DNA of 64,000 nt from an uncultured virus (IMG/VR IMGVR_UViG_3300008266_011056) (Duplodnaviria; Heunggongvirae; Uroviricota; Caudoviricetes). The notes under the pieces were generated by a model. That model searched no databases and was not told where the DNA came from. It saw nothing but the letters and a program-made list of their open reading frames with translations. Shown here in pieces: positions 181 through 9,041 of this stretch (position 1 is the stretch's first letter; each line of letters starts with the position of its first letter). The position numbers and the translations under genes were made by a program. The stretch is from the IMG/VR virus record IMGVR_UViG_3300008266_011056; one strand, written 5' to 3'.

Positions 181-693
181 CTATCCTTCGAAAAGATCTT
201 CGTTCCACTCCCTATGACCTTCACGCCATGCCATGTTGCTCTGTGTTTCTCTTACTTCTACTCTATAACACCATAAGCGATCGGCTTCACCGGGACCCCA
301 CATGTCGGGGATATATACCCCGTTTACATACTTATAAAGCATATCAGCTAGACCCTCACATCCTAACCTAGGTAGTATAGTAAGCTTAGCTAATTTTTTC
401 TCCTGTAGTTTATAAAACATATCAATTTCTGGATCATCCTGAGCTACAAGTAAAGTATGATCAAATTGATCCTCTAGGACGTTCTTCAGCTCTTTTAAAC
501 CACCATAATCAGCTACCCAATTACGTACATCTAGATGATCTGTACCGAAATAAAACTTCATGTTAAAACTGTAACCATGAATTAGGTTACAATGTGAGTC
601 GGCACGCCATTGGCGATATGCACAAGGAAACGAATCGTGATACTCTTTTGTACTTACATATTTGTAAGTTCTTGAAATGCGTTGATCGGACAT
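181..693 (-). CDS. queD: 6-carboxy-5,6,7,8-tetrahydropterin synthase (QueD/PTPS family)
   Basis: CxxxHGY motif (HCNLIHGYS), DYGGLK, FDHTLL and VEVRET; located in an operon with folE, queE and queC. Confidence 0.9.
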   Translation of the reverse strand: MSDQRISRTYKYVSTKEYHDSFPCAYRQWRADSHCNLIHGYSFNMKFYFGTDHLDVRNWVADYGGLKELKNVLEDQFDHTLLVAQDDPEIDMFYKLQEKKLAKLTILPRLGCEGLADMLYKYVNGVYIPDMWGPGEADRLWCYRVEVRETQSNMAWREGHREWNEDLFEG

Positions 694-702
694 TTTTACC
701 TC

Positions 703-1656
703 TTAATAAAACTTTATTTTTCTATAGTTAGAAGATTTATACCATTCATCTAGATCATTAACTATATCTGATAATGTACAAACTGGTGTCCATTGTAATA
801 TCATTTTAGCTTTAGATATATCTGCTACTAGCTTATCACAATCTCCAGGTCTTCTAGGACCTATGCGTATTGGTTGTTCACCAATCTTCTCAAACACTTT
901 GTTAATAATTTGCTGGTTGGACATGCCTACACCACTACCTAGATTATATACTCCTATGGCATGTCTTTCCATAGCTCTAACATGTGCTGTAGCAATATCG
1001 TTAATATGAATATAATCTCTTACACAAGTACCGTCTTCAGTTTTATAATCCGTACCATTTAATACAAATGATTTAGATTCGAATAACTGAGGAAAGATAT
1101 GTGTCGAGTGAGGTTCTTGACCATGTATACTACCTACGGATCCACATGCATTGAAATACCTGAAGGCTGTATATTTAAAGTCATGAGCTTTTCTATAGTC
1201 TTCAAGAACCTCCTCAACCATTAACTTTGTTCTGGCATAAGGTGATTGTGGTTCTTTTACAGCTTCTTCGTCTAATAGATTGTTATTAGTTCTATAGACA
1301 GATGCACTACTACTAAACATGAAGTGTGTGTGTTTTTGATATCTACTAAGTAAGCTTATTAGATGTATAGTCTTAGATACGTTATTTACATAATAGTTGT
1401 CTGGCCAATGTATACTTGGACCAACTAGGTTTGTACCCGCACAGTGTATTACAGCATCAAACTTATATTGCTGTAAAAATTCTGGAGTAATAACATCTAA
1501 TATGTCCCCCTTATAGAACTTATCTATGTAGGGGTTAATTCTTTCTCGGTATACTTTATCAACACCGATTACATTATGTTTTAACCTATTTAACTCAATG
1601 CAGATAGCGCCACCAATAAAACCGGTAGCGCCTGTAACGAGAATATTCTTTGCCAT
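703..1656 (-). CDS. galE: UDP-glucose 4-epimerase (NAD-dependent epimerase/dehydratase)
   Basis: VTGATGFIG Rossmann motif, FSSSASVY, YxxxK (YARTK), RYFNACG, DGTCVRDYIH, YNLGSG, RRPGD. Confidence 0.88.
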   Translation of the reverse strand: MAKNILVTGATGFIGGAICIELNRLKHNVIGVDKVYRERINPYIDKFYKGDILDVITPEFLQQYKFDAVIHCAGTNLVGPSIHWPDNYYVNNVSKTIHLISLLSRYQKHTHFMFSSSASVYRTNNNLLDEEAVKEPQSPYARTKLMVEEVLEDYRKAHDFKYTAFRYFNACGSVGSIHGQEPHSTHIFPQLFESKSFVLNGTDYKTEDGTCVRDYIHINDIATAHVRAMERHAIGVYNLGSGVGMSNQQIINKVFEKIGEQPIRIGPRRPGDCDKLVADISKAKMILQWTPVCTLSDIVNDLDEWYKSSNYRKIKFY

Positions 1657-1660
1657 AATG

Positions 1661-2164
1661 TTATACTTGGCTATATTTTTTATCGTGCTCTTTGTTTATA
1701 CCGTAATCACCATCATAGTTATGTAGTGCTTCGGCATCAAACGATAGATACTGACCTACCCTTGTACCCTTTTTAATCCTCGCCGTACCAACCTGAATAT
1801 GTAGTACCCCGGCCATAACACCATGATAACCAGAATCATACAAACCTGAAGTAATGAAGCAGCCGTTTCTGTTAAGAGTGCTCCTAGTAATGACCCAACC
1901 AGCTTCACCCTCTCCCACATGGATGATGTTCTCCATAACGATCTCATAAGACCCCGGTGAAAGCGTAAAATATCCATCCTCGTCAGGAAAGATTTCCGTA
2001 GACCCACGATGTTTTTTATGATCATTACTAATCTCAAATATTTGTTCGTTAATGGAATATACTTTATCTAGTCTCAGGTCTATTGCATTAGGCTGTACGT
2101 CACCTTCTTGTACATTAGTGAGAGTTGTTTTGCTGTTGGATCCAGCTACATGCTTCATAATCAC
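1661..2164 (-). CDS. dCTP deaminase / trimeric dUTPase family protein
   Basis: QPNAIDLRL, RSTLNRNG, GLYDSGYHG, RVGQ and C-terminal YDGDYG motifs. Confidence 0.8.
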   Translation of the reverse strand: MIMKHVAGSNSKTTLTNVQEGDVQPNAIDLRLDKVYSINEQIFEISNDHKKHRGSTEIFPDEDGYFTLSPGSYEIVMENIIHVGEGEAGWVITRSTLNRNGCFITSGLYDSGYHGVMAGVLHIQVGTARIKKGTRVGQYLSFDAEALHNYDGDYGINKEHDKKYSQV

Positions 2165-2775
2165 TCCGGTATAAAATAAGGATTCTCTTTTGTATCAAAA
2201 CTATGTATTTCAGACATAGGTAGTTCTTTATAGTTATGTAAGTTGATTCTGAATATTTTATTAGGTGGTAATAATGTACTACCTTCGAACTCAGTAGAAG
2301 ATATGTTTAGATTCTCGTCATAATAAAGAGGAGAAATTTCATTTCGGAAAACCATCAACTCATAGTTATTATAGTATACACAGGCAAAAGTACCATCTAC
2401 TTCGGATAACGCATGATAACCTTTATAAACCAGTTTTTCATGTAACCAGAGTGTATCCCAGTACCCTTCAGGTATATTAGATTGTTTAATAATACCATTA
2501 TGCCATAGGTACGTACCGTTAACTACACTGGGGTGCTGATTATCGTTATCTGTAGTTGGTGCTTGACTATGCCCTACATAGTAATAACCTGGTGCACCTA
2601 TTTTAGAAATAAAATCTTCAGGATAAGGTTCTCTTTCTTGGAAAAGATTTTGTATAACAGCAACTGCTTCTGCTTTAAAGATGCCTAATGAGTAACCAAG
2701 CTCACCTCGATATGCATTTAGCTTATAAAGTTTATTGAGTGTGTTTACATCAAAAGAACAGAATATAGCGCACAT
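2161..2775 (-). CDS. Stand-alone class II (Ntn) glutamine amidotransferase domain protein
   Basis: N-terminal M-C nucleophile, YRG, GHSQAPT, QHP, WHNGII, DT, GTFAC and FRNEISPL; directly downstream of queC. Confidence 0.75.
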   Translation of the reverse strand: MCAIFCSFDVNTLNKLYKLNAYRGELGYSLGIFKAEAVAVIQNLFQEREPYPEDFISKIGAPGYYYVGHSQAPTTDNDNQHPSVVNGTYLWHNGIIKQSNIPEGYWDTLWLHEKLVYKGYHALSEVDGTFACVYYNNYELMVFRNEISPLYYDENLNISSTEFEGSTLLPPNKIFRINLHNYKELPMSEIHSFDTKENPYFIPE

Positions 2776-2776
2776 A

Positions 2777-3538
2777 TTATACTTTCATTTTACTAATCAA
2801 GTCATCCCAAGGTATACTCATAGAGTAAGTCTTAGGATCTCTTTCACCTATCTTAGCAAAGTTAGCGATTCTTTCAGAGCAACTAGGACATTTACCGCAT
2901 GAGTCTCCATCTTCATTGGGATTATAGCATGTTAATGTGAAAGCAGTCAATTGTAGATTGCCTTCCATTTCCCGAAGTAGCTGTAACTCATCATACTTGG
3001 ATAGTTTACTAAACGGTGCTACCAGTTTAATTTTTATAATTCTATTTTCTGATAGTAGATCGTTTACTTTATTAACCCACCTTTGAGTAGTATCATGATA
3101 ACCATACTCGTCATGTACCTGTAAGCCACAAAGAATAGTATCTACGTTTCTCGTTTCAGCATAGGCTGCTGCAATAGACATTAAGATCATATTACGATTA
3201 GGTACATATGTCTTTGGTCTAGGATCACCTAACACTTCTTTAATCGTTGGCATGGCGATATCTTTATCTACATTGGCTGAAAAGCCTTTAGATATATCAC
3301 CTAAGAACGAAGCATCTATTACTTTATGAGTAACACGAAGTATAGCAGTTGAAATACCTGCCATAGTAATCTCTTTTGATTGCTTTTGACCATAATCAAA
3401 AGTTAAGGCAGATACGTTTTTACTACCATATTTTTCTACAGCCAATCTCATAGCAATAGTAGAATCCATACCACCGGATAAAATAACTACACATCCGGAA
3501 GTATCTGGTAAAAGGTCTAGGGCGTCATTTAATGTCAT
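2777..3538 (-). CDS. queC: 7-cyano-7-deazaguanine (preQ0) synthase
   Basis: SGGMDS PP-loop, FDYGQK, TYVPNRN, GYHD and the TCY...CGKCPSC zinc site. Confidence 0.95.
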   Translation of the reverse strand: MTLNDALDLLPDTSGCVVILSGGMDSTIAMRLAVEKYGSKNVSALTFDYGQKQSKEITMAGISTAILRVTHKVIDASFLGDISKGFSANVDKDIAMPTIKEVLGDPRPKTYVPNRNMILMSIAAAYAETRNVDTILCGLQVHDEYGYHDTTQRWVNKVNDLLSENRIIKIKLVAPFSKLSKYDELQLLREMEGNLQLTAFTLTCYNPNEDGDSCGKCPSCSERIANFAKIGERDPKTYSMSIPWDDLISKMKV

Positions 3539-4211: not shown

Positions 4212-5135
4212 TCACTGTCTAGCTGTTTTAGTACATGCTGTAATTGAACTGGCTATGTTACCGTACGTGTAGAGCACATCATGGCTTGAAGCTCGTACAG
4301 GGTTAATATCAATACCACCTCTCCGAGTATAGAGGCATGCCACGAATAGTTCCTCGGGTTGTAATAGATCCCACAAACGTTTGTAAATACATTCACAAAT
4401 TTCTTCGTGGAAGTGGTTCTCTTTGCGCATGCTAACAATATATTGCAATAGAGATTCTGGAGTAACTGCCTTATCACCTTTAATATGTACATACACATCA
4501 CCCCAATCCGGTTGATTAGTTACTCGACAATTTGAACGTAGAGAATGTGAACGCCATCTTTCATAACGACCAATAGAAGGAACAACTTCTAAAATACTGG
4601 CAGACTCATTATAGTCTGTAAACTGCATTTTTTCTACATTACAGTAAGATTCGAGAGATACAAAATCACTACTAATAGGTCTTGTAGTATCTACATCTCC
4701 AAAGAACGCATATACTTCTACTTCACCACCGGTAGCATCACTCAAGTCTCTGGCAATCCTATCTTCTACCATCCAGAAGTCAGATGTAGATGTAATGAGA
4801 CGCGCCATGTTATAAGAGTTAAGGTATAGCTTTACTGATTTAGACTCCACAATATTAGGGGAATCAGAATCATAGACAAACTTAAGCCAACCAGAGACGG
4901 GAAAACCATTATCCAAAAGAGTTGAGAACTCATAAGCGTTCCACGCATCGACTCCCACAAACGGTAAGTCATCTTCTTGAATATCATATTGCGTCCTGTT
5001 TAAATGTCTTGGTACAGCTACTAGTAGAGTAGGATCTACATCGTCAGGTGTAACATAAGGTTTTACAACCGTACCGTCACCTGCCTTACCTAAGTGAACT
5101 GATACTAGCTTATTAAGTTCTTCTTGATTGCTCAT
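4212..5135 (-). CDS. queF: NADPH-dependent preQ0 reductase, bimodular (type II) QueF
   Basis: DAWNAYEFS, QueF motif ESKSVKLYLNS, catalytic LRSNCRVTNQPDWG, FHEEICE and YTRRGGIDINP. Start placed at MSNQ (the ORF track extends to 5144). Confidence 0.95.
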   Translation of the reverse strand: MSNQEELNKLVSVHLGKAGDGTVVKPYVTPDDVDPTLLVAVPRHLNRTQYDIQEDDLPFVGVDAWNAYEFSTLLDNGFPVSGWLKFVYDSDSPNIVESKSVKLYLNSYNMARLITSTSDFWMVEDRIARDLSDATGGEVEVYAFFGDVDTTRPISSDFVSLESYCNVEKMQFTDYNESASILEVVPSIGRYERWRSHSLRSNCRVTNQPDWGDVYVHIKGDKAVTPESLLQYIVSMRKENHFHEEICECIYKRLWDLLQPEELFVACLYTRRGGIDINPVRASSHDVLYTYGNIASSITACTKTARQ

Positions 5136-5670
5136 GCTCAACATCCTTTATATATTTAAGTACCGTATCTACTCTTTCTCTAACTGAACCTACTAGGTAG
5201 ACGGTAGTTAATTGTTTTTCTTTAATATAACTATCAAATAATGTTACAATTCTATCTCTAAAATGCCTATTAATACTTCTTGTTCCGTCATCTTCTATTT
5301 CAAATTCTGGTGGAATATAAAAGACTAGGTCATACTTTGGCATGAGTTTGTTGAATATGTTATCAGCAAAATCATATGTCTTCTGAGTTATTTTTTTATT
5401 TTCTGCTAAGTAGTGAGAGTAAACAATACCGTCTAATGCACATCTATCTGATATCATATTGTCGTTCATAAAGACATTAACAATATGTTCTTGCATTATC
5501 AATCTCTGCGTAATGTCATCACCTTCTTCATTTATGTTTAACCCATAACCCTTAACACGTCTAGTCACTTCGGTACAAAAGGTATACTGCTTTAATGCTT
5601 CTTCAGAACGTAAAGCATTAATTAATGTAGTCTTACCTACTGATTGAGCGCCGCTTATCGCTATTTTCAT
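5113..5670 (-). CDS. P-loop nucleoside/nucleotide kinase (NadR/thymidylate-kinase-like AAA protein)
   Basis: Walker A GAQSVGKTT, DRCALD motif and EDDGTR lid. Confidence 0.75.
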   Translation of the reverse strand: MKIAISGAQSVGKTTLINALRSEEALKQYTFCTEVTRRVKGYGLNINEEGDDITQRLIMQEHIVNVFMNDNMISDRCALDGIVYSHYLAENKKITQKTYDFADNIFNKLMPKYDLVFYIPPEFEIEDDGTRSINRHFRDRIVTLFDSYIKEKQLTTVYLVGSVRERVDTVLKYIKDVEHEQSRRT

Positions 5671-6196
5671 TTAACTTTCCCCACATAAACTTTTCCCATA
5701 AGTATAGCGATTTTCTCTTTAATAGGCTATACAATTCGTCTAATGAATTAGCTGTATTCGGTACGCCTGTCTGGTCGACAATAGGACCTTCATCTACACC
5801 TGCTGTTACTTTGTGTATAACGCAACCTACCCAACGATGCCTGGCTTCCCAAGCTTTTACTTGTGGGTCTTTACCTTTAAGTTCAGGGTATGCTGTAATG
5901 TAGCCGGGATGGCCGTTATAGATTTCAAATCGTTCACAAACGTCTGGTGGTATAATTCTTAAATACCCGTGTAGAGTAATCAGTACTTCTTTAGGGTTAT
6001 TATAATTATCACGAAGAAATTGCATTAGACCATCATGCCCTGCTACGTACATTGGTATACTTAGAAGTACCATATCAGGGTGATATGTTGAAACATCTTT
6101 GTTATTAGTAAGAATTAAATCAGGTGAGCGACCTAGTTCTTTAGATAGATGAACTATCTCTGATCCTGTTTGACTAAAAAAAGCAATCCAGTACAT
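5633..6196 (-). CDS. PurN-like formyltransferase, probable preQ1 formyltransferase (DpdN-like)
   Basis: FSQTGS, HGYLRII, NGHPG (N-x-H-P), YPELKG and HKVTAGVDEGPI GAR-transformylase motifs; lies between the dpdA-like gene and queF. Confidence 0.8.
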   Translation of the reverse strand: MYWIAFFSQTGSEIVHLSKELGRSPDLILTNNKDVSTYHPDMVLLSIPMYVAGHDGLMQFLRDNYNNPKEVLITLHGYLRIIPPDVCERFEIYNGHPGYITAYPELKGKDPQVKAWEARHRWVGCVIHKVTAGVDEGPIVDQTGVPNTANSLDELYSLLKRKSLYLWEKFMWGKLNENSDKRRSISR

Positions 6197-7011
6197 TACT
6201 CTGTACCTTTTACATACGATCTAAAGTAATTAATGTTTGCTTGAATAAAACTCATCTGCTCATGATCGGGTACGGAATATAATAAGTCGACCAGTTTAAT
6301 GGACTGCTTATCAACCAAACCACCAGGCTCGTAAAGAGTATTAAGAAGCCCATGAACCACAGGGCTGGAAGTATCCATGGTCTCAATCCATTCGAACCCT
6401 TGTCTATAAAACAAGAATTCGATAGGTAGTGAACAACCCAGTAGGTGATGTGGTTTATCCTTGTTAATAATTCCTTCATTTAACATTCTCGTTAGTGTTT
6501 GTACTCTACCTAGTGTAAAGGACATCCATTTGTTAGGGTGCTTATATAAATCTTCATAATAACTATAGTCAAATGAAAAAGCAATTTTATCTACACCTAG
6601 TATATCTAGTTCCTCATAACATGTAACTAGATCCCTATAATTTTTGCCTTGAACGACACCAATAGATTTTCCTGGTAGATCAGGGAATAGCTCTTTAAAC
6701 ATCATAGCATTACCAATTGTTCTTTCCATATTCTCTAGAACATCTGGTATAATATACTCTGTAGGTTTAAGCTGGTTAACATATTTTGCAAACGTATTCA
6801 TGTTAAAAGCTTCACCTAATTCAAACACCGAGTTATCTAAGATAACTTTTCTTCCTTGAGCTAGTGACTCCTCAAAAAACTTATAGTATAGTGGCTCTGT
6901 TTCAAACAGATGAACTAGAGCATAGTCATAATCATTAAATGCTATAGATTTTCCTAGTAAAGATAGTGGTACTTCATGGCTGATTAACATATATTTTTTT
7001 CCATTGCTCAT
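6196..7011 (-). CDS. Divergent TGT-fold deazaguanine transglycosylase (DpdA3-like)
   Basis: TGT barrel motifs in order: ILDNSVF (DSGGF equivalent), IIPDV, GVVQG, HHLLG, MDTSSP. No C-terminal zinc cluster. Real start may be MLISHE at 6990. Confidence 0.75.
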   Translation of the reverse strand: MSNGKKYMLISHEVPLSLLGKSIAFNDYDYALVHLFETEPLYYKFFEESLAQGRKVILDNSVFELGEAFNMNTFAKYVNQLKPTEYIIPDVLENMERTIGNAMMFKELFPDLPGKSIGVVQGKNYRDLVTCYEELDILGVDKIAFSFDYSYYEDLYKHPNKWMSFTLGRVQTLTRMLNEGIINKDKPHHLLGCSLPIEFLFYRQGFEWIETMDTSSPVVHGLLNTLYEPGGLVDKQSIKLVDLLYSVPDHEQMSFIQANINYFRSYVKGTE

Positions 7012-7342
7012 TAAGATTACGAACTTCCTGAATAGCTGCGTATCTAGTAGATTTGCTCATCTTAACTATTTCAGTTACCCCTACAATTTTTTCTTCTAAC
7101 CAAAAATTCTTAGGATATTTTTTCTTCAATCTCTCTTCTGTTTGCTCAATAACACTTTTGTCTGGATGATAAGCGGTGCAAAGAATACGTATATCCCACT
7201 TTGAGTATTGCTCTGGCTCAAAACGAAATCTATCAGCAGCATCTTTATAACCTGTGTAACCAAATTTTAAAAATGTATCACCATTTACCTTATCGGTGAA
7301 TTCTGCTAAGTATATCTTAGCACCCCTCATATATCGATTCAT
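6974..7342 (-). CDS. GIY-YIG-like (T5orf172-like) nuclease domain protein
   Basis: KIYL...FLKFGYT...DRF, a helix with E (EQTEERL) and GVTE near the C-terminus; 122 aa. Confidence 0.5.
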   Translation of the reverse strand: MNRYMRGAKIYLAEFTDKVNGDTFLKFGYTGYKDAADRFRFEPEQYSKWDIRILCTAYHPDKSVIEQTEERLKKKYPKNFWLEEKIVGVTEIVKMSKSTRYAAIQEVRNLNEQWKKIYVNQP

Positions 7343-7344
7343 AA

Positions 7345-8022
7345 TTATTTTTTAATCAAGGTCATAAACTCAGCACGTGCTTCTGGTTCACTTCTAAAAC
7401 AACCACCAAGCTTAGCTGTGTAGGTATAAGACGAATGATCTTCTACACCTCTGCTCTTTACACAGTAGTGTGTACCTTCAATTACAACAGCAATATCATC
7501 TGTACCCAGAATAAACGCTAGTGCATGATAGATTTGTTCTGCAATACGTTCCTGTACTTGAGGTCTACGTGCAAAATATTCAACGATACGATTAAGTTTA
7601 GATAAACCTAATACTTTACCTTTAGGAATATAAGCCACATGGGCCTTACCATCAATAGTAACAAAATGGTGTTCACAGTTAGACATTAGTGTAATGTCCT
7701 TCTCGATAACCATTTCATCGTACCCCATCTTGTTCTCGATGACAGTACATTTAGGAAAGTTCTCTGGTTTCAAACCCCAGAAGATTTCATTTACATACAT
7801 CTTAGCTACTCGCAGAGGAGTATCAGTCAATGAGTCATCTTCACGATCAAGACCAAGAATATCCATAATAGCAGCAAAGTGCTTTTCGATCTTGTTAATC
7901 TTCGACTTTTCTTTTACATTAAGCTTATCGATGATAGTAGGTGTATGTACACCCTTCTCACGAAGATATTCCTCAATCTTATAACCTAGCTCTGGATCTG
8001 TTTTACCGACTTGTAATGACAT
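7345..8022 (-). CDS. folE: GTP cyclohydrolase I
   Basis: [40 protein letters not shown]. Confidence 0.96.
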
Positions 8023-8208
8023 TTAGTTCTCCGTTTCCGTATCCCATTTAATTTTTAACCAAGCTCTTTCATGTATGTAATGAGCTATTGTCATGAAGAT
8101 ATTAATTATGATAGCTCCCGACAAACCTGTCCATACAGCTGTTACCAAAGTAGCAACAATTCGCCATGTAATAGCTCTTACTATAGTCCTTCTATGTGTC
8201 TCTGACAT
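8023..8208 (-). CDS. Small membrane protein, DUF2061-like
   Basis: ETHRRTIVRAITWRIVAT...HYIHERAW pattern with a hydrophobic core; start overlaps the queE stop (TAATG). Confidence 0.7.
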   Translation of the reverse strand: MSETHRRTIVRAITWRIVATLVTAVWTGLSGAIIINIFMTIAHYIHERAWLKIKWDTETEN

Positions 8209-9041
8209 TATGTACCCCATTCATTTTTAAAAAGAGGTACCTGTAATCTATCTGAGTACCTAAAACCCTTATTCATAGCTAATTCAGCTACTTTTCTATT
8301 ATTCATGTGGTATACAGATTCTACACCACCTACAGGCATTAAATAAACCGGGCCACTAAAACCTGCACTTTGATATTGGAAGACAGCCTTTTGCGCTTCT
8401 TCCGCGTCTTCTTCTGTAGCAACGACAAACTTAAGATAGGTGTAACCAACCTTTTCATATTCACGAACAACTTCTGGCTTGATAGCCTCTTCCCACTTCT
8501 CACCTGATACAGATAGTTTAGGTGAAACTGAAAAAGTTATTTCGTCGTAATTAAAAGAGTTAGTTAGATATTTTCTAAACTCGCTAGACAGCTCTTGAGT
8601 ACCGTTAGTCTCAAAAGTAACTTCTTTAAGACCTAACATAAGTCTATGGCTTAGTAAATCAGGATAAGCTTTTTGCCATCCTAATAGAGGCTCACCACCA
8701 GTAATAACTAGATGTTCATCTTTCCATCTTTTATGCGGAAGCATTTCGATAATGGCTTGTGCAATTGCTTCACTATCCAGAACAGGGGATAAGTGCTTAA
8801 AGCGAGGATCCCAAGAAGCGTAAGAATCACAGCCAGTAGATACAAGAGGAAGATCCTGGTAAGATTTGTAACTATCAGGGTTAACTTTAAGATACTCATC
8901 GGTCCTTTCACCTTTAGGCATACCGAAACCTTCACATTTGAAGTTACATCCGAAGGTTCTTAGGAAGACAGAAGGTACGCCCATATAGCGACCTTCACCT
9001 TGAATGGAGTAAAATAACTCCGCGACTTTAATCTTTGACAT
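8208..9041 (-). CDS. queE: 7-carboxy-7-deazaguanine synthase (radical SAM)
   Basis: ELFYSIQGEG, FLRTFGCNFKC...GCDS, VITGGEPLL, ETNGT, SVSPKL, LKFVV, YLMP. Confidence 0.93.
   Translation of the reverse strand: MSKIKVAELFYSIQGEGRYMGVPSVFLRTFGCNFKCEGFGMPKGERTDEYLKVNPDSYKSYQDLPLVSTGCDSYASWDPRFKHLSPVLDSEAIAQAIIEMLPHKRWKDEHLVITGGEPLLGWQKAYPDLLSHRLMLGLKEVTFETNGTQELSSEFRKYLTNSFNYDEITFSVSPKLSVSGEKWEEAIKPEVVREYEKVGYTYLKFVVATEEDAEEAQKAVFQYQSAGFSGPVYLMPVGGVESVYHMNNRKVAELAMNKGFRYSDRLQVPLFKNEWGT

Follow-up and report, generated by a model that had tools for sequence, protein, structure and literature searches.

Eight 7-deazaguanine bases are known from DNA, among them 7-(formylamino)methyl-7-deazaguanine (fdPreQ1), the formylated form of 7-aminomethyl-7-deazaguanine (preQ1). 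The DNA of Flavobacterium phage immuto contains, in place of guanine, 345,000 fdPreQ1 per 10^6 nucleotides (nt) and no dPreQ1, the unformylated counterpart (Table 1 in PMC10516641). Its authors, Cui, Hutinet et al. (NAR 2023, PMC10516641), predicted DpdN, a PF00551 protein, as 'proposed preQ1 or dPreQ1 formylase', filed the immuto transglycosylase DpdA under the DpdA3 subfamily (table DS1), which goes with complete replacement of guanine, and concluded that deazaguanine insertion is post-replicative. Here, we analysed a stretch of 64,000 nt (the window) from the uncultured virus IMG/VR IMGVR_UViG_3300008266_011056, which is part of a complete, terminally redundant record of 165,076 base pairs (bp). 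At its left end lies a packed operon, with all genes on the minus strand, that contains a gene pair for a protein resembling tRNA-guanine transglycosylases (TGTs) and a PurN-like formyltransferase. The original prediction, made from the sequence alone, held that the PurN homologue does not serve purine synthesis but formylates the aminomethyl group of preQ1, which would neutralise its positive charge in DNA. Our analysis supports this reading, which is not new: since the best phage matches of both proteins are the immuto pair, named DpdA3 and DpdN in PMC10516641, it coincides with the published prediction for DpdN. The pair would exchange guanine in phage DNA for a formylated 7-deazaguanine and so shield the DNA against restriction enzymes of the host.

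Judged by homology and predicted structure, the 187-residue formyltransferase-like protein is a DpdN orthologue. It is 49.7% identical to immuto DpdN (YP_010114479.1; E 6e-39, 90% coverage) and clusters with it, whereas the next phage matches do not exceed 31% identity over 67% of its length. Three other published DpdN proteins are 41–45% identical to that of immuto (DS16 in PMC10516641), and the signature motifs common to all four in the supplementary alignment of that paper (WVAFFSQTGSE, TLHGYLRI, YNGHPG, YPELKGKDPQ and VHK..VDxG) were all found in the window protein. The start codon is backed by the homologues, all of which begin with M-x-W.

Similarity to PurN is evident in fold and active site. 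In PurN, the catalytic roles are held by an Asn, a His and an Asp. An AlphaFold2 (AF2) model of the window DpdN, built from a 121-sequence alignment, had a mean predicted local distance difference test score (pLDDT) of 95 and a PurN fold over its full length; the best match was 4s1n (E 6.4e-13, template modelling (TM) scores 0.76/0.79), and PurN structures overall gave TM scores of 0.71–0.79 at 19–23% identity. All 121 representatives (50% clustering) share N94, H96, D135 and H128, the first three of which fall on the N-x-H and D motifs of PurN in the alignment. Further residues, specific to the DpdN family, are also invariant (G11, E13, G77, L106, G108, W167 and, again, H128). At the sequence level the resemblance is confined to part of the protein: PF00551 matched residues 71–149 only (E 1.7e-10), and the PurN equivalog model TIGR00639 matched residues 67–149 only, with 43.6 bits against a cut-off of 150.1. 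That is, by this score DpdN is not a PurN equivalog. The PurN fold of DpdN is also stated in the supplement of PMC10516641. The last 12 codons of the window gene (5633–5670) encode a tail (NENSDKRRSISR) modelled with a pLDDT of about 51 and share 38 nt with the start of the following P-loop gene; only the closest subgroup of the family keeps the tail, and the overlapping frame is perhaps the cause.

The 271-residue neighbour is a DpdA3-type protein by homology and by its predicted TGT-like fold. It shares 48.3% identity with immuto DpdA (E 7e-74) and 44–45% with the Campylobacter CP220 group (E ~1e-48). Pfam and NCBIfam gave no match for this open reading frame (ORF), and a profile built from 42 DpdA3 relatives found no solved TGT among the PDB sequences. 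The AF2 model (pLDDT 94.2), in contrast, had TGTs as its best PDB matches in Foldseek (E 1.7e-9, query TM scores 0.63–0.71), and every one of the best 50 matches listed was a tRNA-guanine/queuine transglycosylase. The TGT identity thus rests on the fold, since the sequence methods see no TGT. The original prediction had described a protein that keeps the catalytic Asp motifs (DNS, PDV, DTSS) and lacks the Zn-binding CxCxxC, and this was borne out: the motifs are D59-N60-S61, P89-D90-V91 and D213-T214-S215-S216, of which D59, S61, P89, D90, D213 and S215 are invariant across 42 aligned relatives, as is D148, and the protein has two Cys only (C131 and C193) and no CxCxxC motif. All 42 DpdA3 sequences are acidic (pI 4.7–6.2).

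FolE, QueD, QueE, QueC, QueF and DpdA3 are all encoded on one strand within 9 kb, and DpdN belongs to this set. It is likely that DpdN is the formyltransferase of the preQ1 aminomethyl group: homology, fold, conserved catalytic residues, gene context and the lack of a purine pathway are shown here, whereas acceptor, donor and product are inferred. The operon would make preQ1 from GTP via FolE, QueD, QueE, QueC and QueF, and the Zn-less TGT-like DpdA3 would put it into DNA in place of guanine. With the chemistry of PurN, Asn94, His96 and Asp135 would make the formyl group of host 10-formyl-tetrahydrofolate (10-formyl-THF) open to attack by a primary amine, here the exocyclic 7-aminomethyl nitrogen of preQ1. 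Virion DNA would thus contain fdPreQ1, which is neutral and not cationic. Glycinamide ribonucleotide (GAR), the PurN substrate, and preQ1 both carry a primary amine on a methylene group. The phage genome encodes ThyX, and an ORF scan found no formyl-THF-making enzyme in it, so that the formyl donor would come from the host. The assignment is thus supported by orthology to the immuto pair with its fdPreQ1-containing DNA, by the shared motifs, by fold and residues, by the score far below the PurN cut-off, by the chemistry, by the conserved gene order, by the full preQ1 gene set around DpdN and by the absence of any other pur gene from the genome.

The DpdN family proved to be large. Among 2,139 candidates from a word-indexed database, 2,079 proteins were DpdN relatives at E ≤ 1e-3; the 120 relatives listed were 49–88% identical and mostly 175–200 residues long, with a few shorter fragments. 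A library of 50% representatives held 97 clusters at E ≤ 1e-30, 327 at ≤ 1e-10 and 821 at ≤ 1e-3. In IMG/VR, at least 562 viral contigs (of at least 599 pattern matches) encode a DpdN relative, and only eight DpdN loci were found among 185,579 species genomes in GTDB, six of them with DpdA adjacent; the family is therefore essentially viral. At the nucleotide level the region matched none of 50,697 phage records; relatives emerged from protein searches.

For the gene neighbourhood we kept 80 IMG/VR loci, with three duplicates dropped; 80 of 82 loci gave a DpdN ORF, and these formed 48 clusters at 90% identity. Counts are lower bounds, since loci often end short of the full cluster. DpdA lay directly upstream on the same strand in 46 of the 48 clusters, the P-loop protein was found in 44, QueF in 42, FolE in 33, QueE and QueC in 28 each and a Gat-like protein in 26. 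The order DpdA3, DpdN, nucleoside-kinase-like P-loop protein, QueF thus recurs in 42–46 of the 48. In one of the two clusters without upstream DpdA, the sequence before DpdN is only 57 nt long; in the other, L093, a glutamine amidotransferase (GATase) takes the place of DpdA. At L093:6228–7873 the order is GATase, DpdN and a MazZ-like protein (PF18909, 'dATP/dGTP diphosphohydrolase N-terminal'), with no DpdA within 7 kb. A dGTP-hydrolysing enzyme beside DpdN hints at manipulation of the nucleotide pool.

The original prediction had called the pair translationally coupled. The overlap itself is there: positions 6194–6198 read CATTA on the plus strand and TAATG on the minus strand, with the stop TAA (6198–6196) and the start ATG (6196–6194) sharing one base. 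However, coupling adds little as evidence because such overlaps are normal for this genome. The window has 56 same-strand junctions, of which 24 overlap, 12 by 1 or 4 nt, and 42 have a gap of at most 10 nt; the TAATG is ordinary packing and not above chance. At the DpdA–DpdN junctions of the 46 clusters, genes overlap in 31, are separated by 0–10 nt in nine, by 28 nt in one and by more than 100 nt in five. The conserved adjacency of DpdA3, DpdN, P-loop protein and QueF is the stronger evidence.

Some observations weigh against DpdN as a preQ1 formylase. The window phage is uncultured, and its DNA chemistry is a prediction from its genes. In PMC10516641 DpdN is only 'proposed', and trials of DpdA3 in E. 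coli were unsuccessful; in open-access full text, a scope outside which most subscription journals fall, we found no biochemical demonstration of DpdN activity. The stop/start overlap carries no weight beyond normal packing, L093 has a GATase and not DpdA upstream of DpdN, and two Microcoleus genomes carry DpdN-like proteins (40% identity) with neither DpdA nor QueF within 5 kb.

Within the formylase reading, the stage at which preQ1 is formylated can be given rough odds only. Action on dPreQ1 already in DNA is a plausible candidate, if short of an even bet; it fits the facts that all characterised DpdA relatives act on polynucleotides and that, in the supplement of PMC10516641, immuto DpdN is described as having a mildly positive surface 'where DNA could bind'. 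Formylation of the free base before insertion is a more doubtful option, and formylation of a preQ1 nucleoside or nucleotide is just as tentative. A small-molecule substrate would agree with a DpdN that has no domain beyond the PurN core, with a pI below 7 in 72% of family members and with immuto DNA free of residual dPreQ1 (PMC10516641). For a phosphorylated nucleoside speaks the company of DpdN, which includes kinase, phosphoribosyltransferase (PRTase), NTP-pyrophosphatase and DUF1599 proteins. Judging from the structural formulae, the amine of the PurN substrate sits on a methylene group a few bonds from ribose-5-phosphate, much as it would in a preQ1 nucleotide.

The alternative that survives best, although we consider it unlikely, extends this last option to the whole pathway. 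DpdA3, DpdN and the kinase-like protein would act on nucleosides or nucleotides before replication. The preQ1 nucleoside or nucleotide would arise either by base exchange, with DpdA3 replacing the guanine of a deoxynucleoside or deoxynucleotide, or, for the nucleotide, through a phage PRTase. DpdN would hold the preQ1 (deoxy)nucleoside 5'-phosphate, a close mimic of GAR, in the same manner as PurN holds GAR, and formylate it; the P-loop kinase would then phosphorylate the product on the way to a triphosphate that the phage polymerase incorporates. Such a route would explain why 100% replacement is reached by DpdA3 phages alone. It draws on the P-loop protein, which follows DpdN so constantly and whose profile matched, among PDB sequences, a deoxynucleoside kinase (8puu, 3e-5), the ribosylnicotinamide-kinase domain of NadR (1lw7, 3.8e-5) and, weakly, thymidylate kinases (TMKs; E 0.02–0.07). 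Its motifs G-x-x-S-x-G-K-T, D75-R76 and D128-G129-x-R131-S132 are invariant; it reaches no curated family cut-off in NCBIfam. Homologues adjoin DpdA3 in immuto (hhalign E 7e-59) and in CP220 (E 8e-35), the latter with no DpdN in a 12.7-kb stretch. The protein may phosphorylate a deazaguanine nucleoside or nucleotide or, alternatively, serve DpdA3 as an ATPase. That it is specific to DpdA3 phages was ruled out, since 84 Streptomyces phage records contain its family, AAA_28, as well; in phage Yaboi, the only one of these examined, AAA_28 adjoins an FkbM methyltransferase that is not DpdA-like, and DpdA3 is absent.

Fusions of DpdN point in the same direction. DpdN is fused to a TMK-like domain in P0180, a 90%-identity cluster of seven members (an IMG/VR scan for relatives of this fusion found none), to AAA_28 in P0188, a singleton that may be an artefact, and to DUF1599, 'nucleotide modification associated domain 1', in the P0124 cluster (eight members), P0176, P0186, L054, L062 and L064. 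The DUF1599 assignment scored 24.8 bits in Pfam, with a cut-off of 25, and the match in the Atlas is a lead only. A DpdA3::DpdN fusion (P0258; 44% identity to the window DpdA over residues 8–267) was dropped as a Rosetta stone, since one sequence on one contig may be an assembly or frameshift artefact. In addition, 8 + 5 of the 48 loci carry MazG-like PRA-PH genes and eight carry PRTases, immuto having both in its cluster, and the MazZ-like dGTP diphosphohydrolase follows DpdN in L093. The uniformly acidic DpdA3 sequences would also suit this route, although overall pI is weak evidence. PurN itself acts on an aminomethyl compound linked to ribose-5-phosphate, and DpdN retains the G11-S12 loop, but the Asn of the PurN GSN loop is replaced by the invariant Glu13, a poor fit to a phosphate site. 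The ADG nucleoside is reported in the cytoplasm of CP220-infected cells (PMC10516641). Against action before replication stand the facts that every characterised TGT or DpdA relative works on a polynucleotide and that the authors of PMC10516641 conclude on post-replicative insertion. Moreover, this genome has no homologue of MazG, HD or MazZ that would remove dGTP, and the AAA_28 family turns up in Streptomyces phages, in the one examined in another setting.

A less probable alternative is that DpdN formylates another acceptor, such as an amino-sugar nucleotide or other amine, or hydrolyses formyl-THF as PurU does, its link to preQ1 being indirect. The Microcoleus homologues speak for it: their genes (5001–5534 in both L098 and L100) keep all DpdN motifs and share an operon with a radical SAM enzyme, a kinase resembling TMK and deoxynucleoside kinases, a DegT aminotransferase and a weak PRTase match. 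Since they sit apart from DpdA and QueF, the family may accept other amines, and the operon may be a cellular pathway that formylates one. PurU and sugar N-formyltransferases were, furthermore, among the fold and sequence matches of DpdN. However, phage DpdN is almost never found apart from DpdA3 and QueF, it has neither the ACT domain of PurU nor a sugar-nucleotide domain, and the one cultured phage with the pair, immuto, has exactly the formylated preQ1 product (PMC10516641).

That DpdN is a true GAR transformylase, an auxiliary purN gene as in T4-like cyanophages that raises purine synthesis in the host and stands in the cluster by chance, is very improbable: among solved structures PurN is closest in fold and family, all three catalytic residues are present, PHROG 9240 ('cyanobacterial phosphoribosylglycinamide formyltransferase') matches at 1.4e-9 and relatives are labelled 'PurN' in public sources (immuto DpdN itself as 'phosphoribosylglycinamide formyltransferase', beside a P-loop protein labelled 'thymidylate kinase'), but the equivalog score and the identity to PurN structures are low, the N-terminal substrate half lies outside the Pfam match, DpdN is locked between DpdA3 and QueF in 42–46 of 48 clusters, six of the only eight loci in species genomes have DpdA, and the complete genome holds no other pur gene. 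This last point had been claimed for the window, where it holds for 57 ORFs (16 + 41) in that no purine-related family besides PF00551 was found, and it extends to the 116 ORFs of at least 100 residues from the remainder of the genome (173 ORFs in total), in which no other purine-synthesis family appeared; PF00551 itself has one match in the whole 165,076 bp. DpdN therefore lacks a purine-biosynthesis context.

The remaining genes of the operon are listed together with the pair in Table 1.

Table 1. Features of the deazaguanine operon at the left end of the window.
Feature	Position	Strand	Evidence
QueD	181–693	-	PF01242 1.2e-15
Epimerase	703–1656	-	
dUTPase/dCTP-deaminase-like protein	1661–2164	-	
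Stand-alone class-II (Ntn, Cys2) glutamine amidotransferase-like protein, 204 aa, N-terminus MC	2161–2775	-	profile matches
QueC	2777–3538	-	PF06508 3.1e-51
Tad3-family protein, 156 aa	3734–4204	-	PF25185 'Type I Thoeris inhibitor Tad3' E 8.8e-40
QueF, two-domain type (preQ0 to preQ1)	4212–5144	-	PF14819 1.5e-30 and PF14489 3.1e-19
P-loop protein, 185 aa, AAA_28, nucleoside/nucleotide-kinase-like	5113–5670	-	PF13521 E 1.9e-17
DpdN orthologue, 187 aa, PurN fold, predicted preQ1 N-formyltransferase	5633–6196	-	PF00551, homology and fold
TAATG stop/start overlap, DpdA3/DpdN	6194–6198	-	read from sequence
DpdA3-type 7-deazaguanine transglycosylase, 271 aa, TGT-like barrel without Zn site	6196–7011	-	homology and fold
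ORF, 122 aa, no assigned function	6974–7342	-	weak PHROG 'endonuclease' match (2e-5)
FolE (GTP cyclohydrolase I)	7345–8022	-	PF01227 2e-60
QueE-like radical SAM enzyme	8208–9041	-	weak Pfam matches PF04055, PF13353 (~3e-4); position and homologues in related clusters

QueF scored 234 bits with TIGR03138, below the cut-off of 293. The amidotransferase-like protein, whose gene directly follows QueC, had no Pfam match; its profile matched the glutaminase domain of GlmS (E 1.5e-4) and the Pfam-positive GATase of L093 (hhalign probability 97%), and all of 21 aligned sequences keep its C2. The protein may be an ammonia source for QueC or a split form of Gat-QueC in reverse order. The Tad3 gene, between QueF and QueC, looks like an anti-defence gene placed within a DNA-modification operon; only the near-identical loci L010 and L016–L018 share it, the other related clusters being without it. 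The 122-residue ORF overlaps the start of DpdA3 by 38 nt and was seen in 12 of the 48 related clusters. Outside the window, about 3.5 kb beyond QueD, the same genome encodes a PRTase of 147 residues (C1:137613–138056, equal to L007:5613–6056). Its best NCBIfam match was xanthine PRTase (4e-9, below cut-off), and it is homologous to the PRTase in the immuto deazaguanine cluster (35% identity, E 3e-11) and to those in eight of the 48 related loci. It could salvage the released guanine or make a 7-deazaguanine nucleotide. Gp23 capsid protein, Gp20 portal, sheath and baseplate proteins, UvsW and UvsY among the gene products identify the phage as a T4-like myovirus.

If only the published reading is true, the window is one more annotated example of it. 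The interpretation of DpdN being already published, what this analysis adds is how large the family is, a fixed core of four genes and the alternative at the nucleotide level. The words 'kinase' and 'phosphoribosyl' do not occur in the main text of PMC10516641, nor 'kinase' in its supplement text; the family in at least 562 viral contigs, its constant kinase-like partner and the recurrent DpdN fusions go beyond that main text. The DpdA3/DpdN pair is thus the core of a conserved module of mostly T4-like viruses and not an oddity of four records. Kinase-like partner and fusions together make a concrete, testable alternative, full deazaguanine substitution on DNA versus in the nucleotide pool, and the window DpdN, a compact orthologue with a well-folding predicted structure, is suited to expression.

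In phage T4, the hydroxymethyl-dC pathway comprises the dCTPase gp56, the folate-dependent dCMP hydroxymethylase gp42 and the dNMP kinase gp1, and the canonical base is fully replaced. T4 thus encodes a folate-dependent one-carbon enzyme together with a nucleotide kinase, as the window does with its predicted formyltransferase and kinase-like protein, an analogy that applies to the nucleotide-level alternative only; T4 has no counterpart of the TGT-like base-exchange enzyme, and the window genome no recognised dGTPase. With PurN (TIGR00639; 4s1n, 1cde), DpdN shares the full-length fold and the aligned N-x-H and D motifs. It differs by being shorter (187 residues versus 180–216 in the matched chains), by its low sequence identity, by its own invariants E13, H76-G77 and the L106-x-G108 'PELKGKDPQ' loop, and by standing outside a purine context. 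5-Methyl-THF has no formyl group, 10-formyl-THF is the donor of PurN-type enzymes, and 5-methyl-THF is the ligand in the M. tuberculosis PurN structure. By analogy, the donor of DpdN is probably that of PurN, 10-formyl-THF; PMC10516641 names 5-methyl-THF as formyl donor of both.

The closest relative of the system is that of immuto, where the order DpdA3, DpdN, P-loop protein and QueF, the DpdN motifs and the PurN fold are as here. In immuto a 50-residue ORF lies between DpdA3 and DpdN, whereas the window genes overlap by 1 nt, and immuto DNA was analysed, whereas the 165-kb window phage is known here from its genes. A functional parallel is offered by DpdM, the dPreQ1 methyltransferase of Cellulophaga phage phiSM and Vibrio phage VH7D, which also decorates the preQ1 aminomethyl nitrogen and is encoded in a deazaguanine cluster (PMC10516641). 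DpdM is unrelated to DpdN in fold and cofactor; it was validated in vivo and yields low levels of modification alongside DpdA2-type insertion, whereas replacement is complete where DpdN occurs (PMC10516641).

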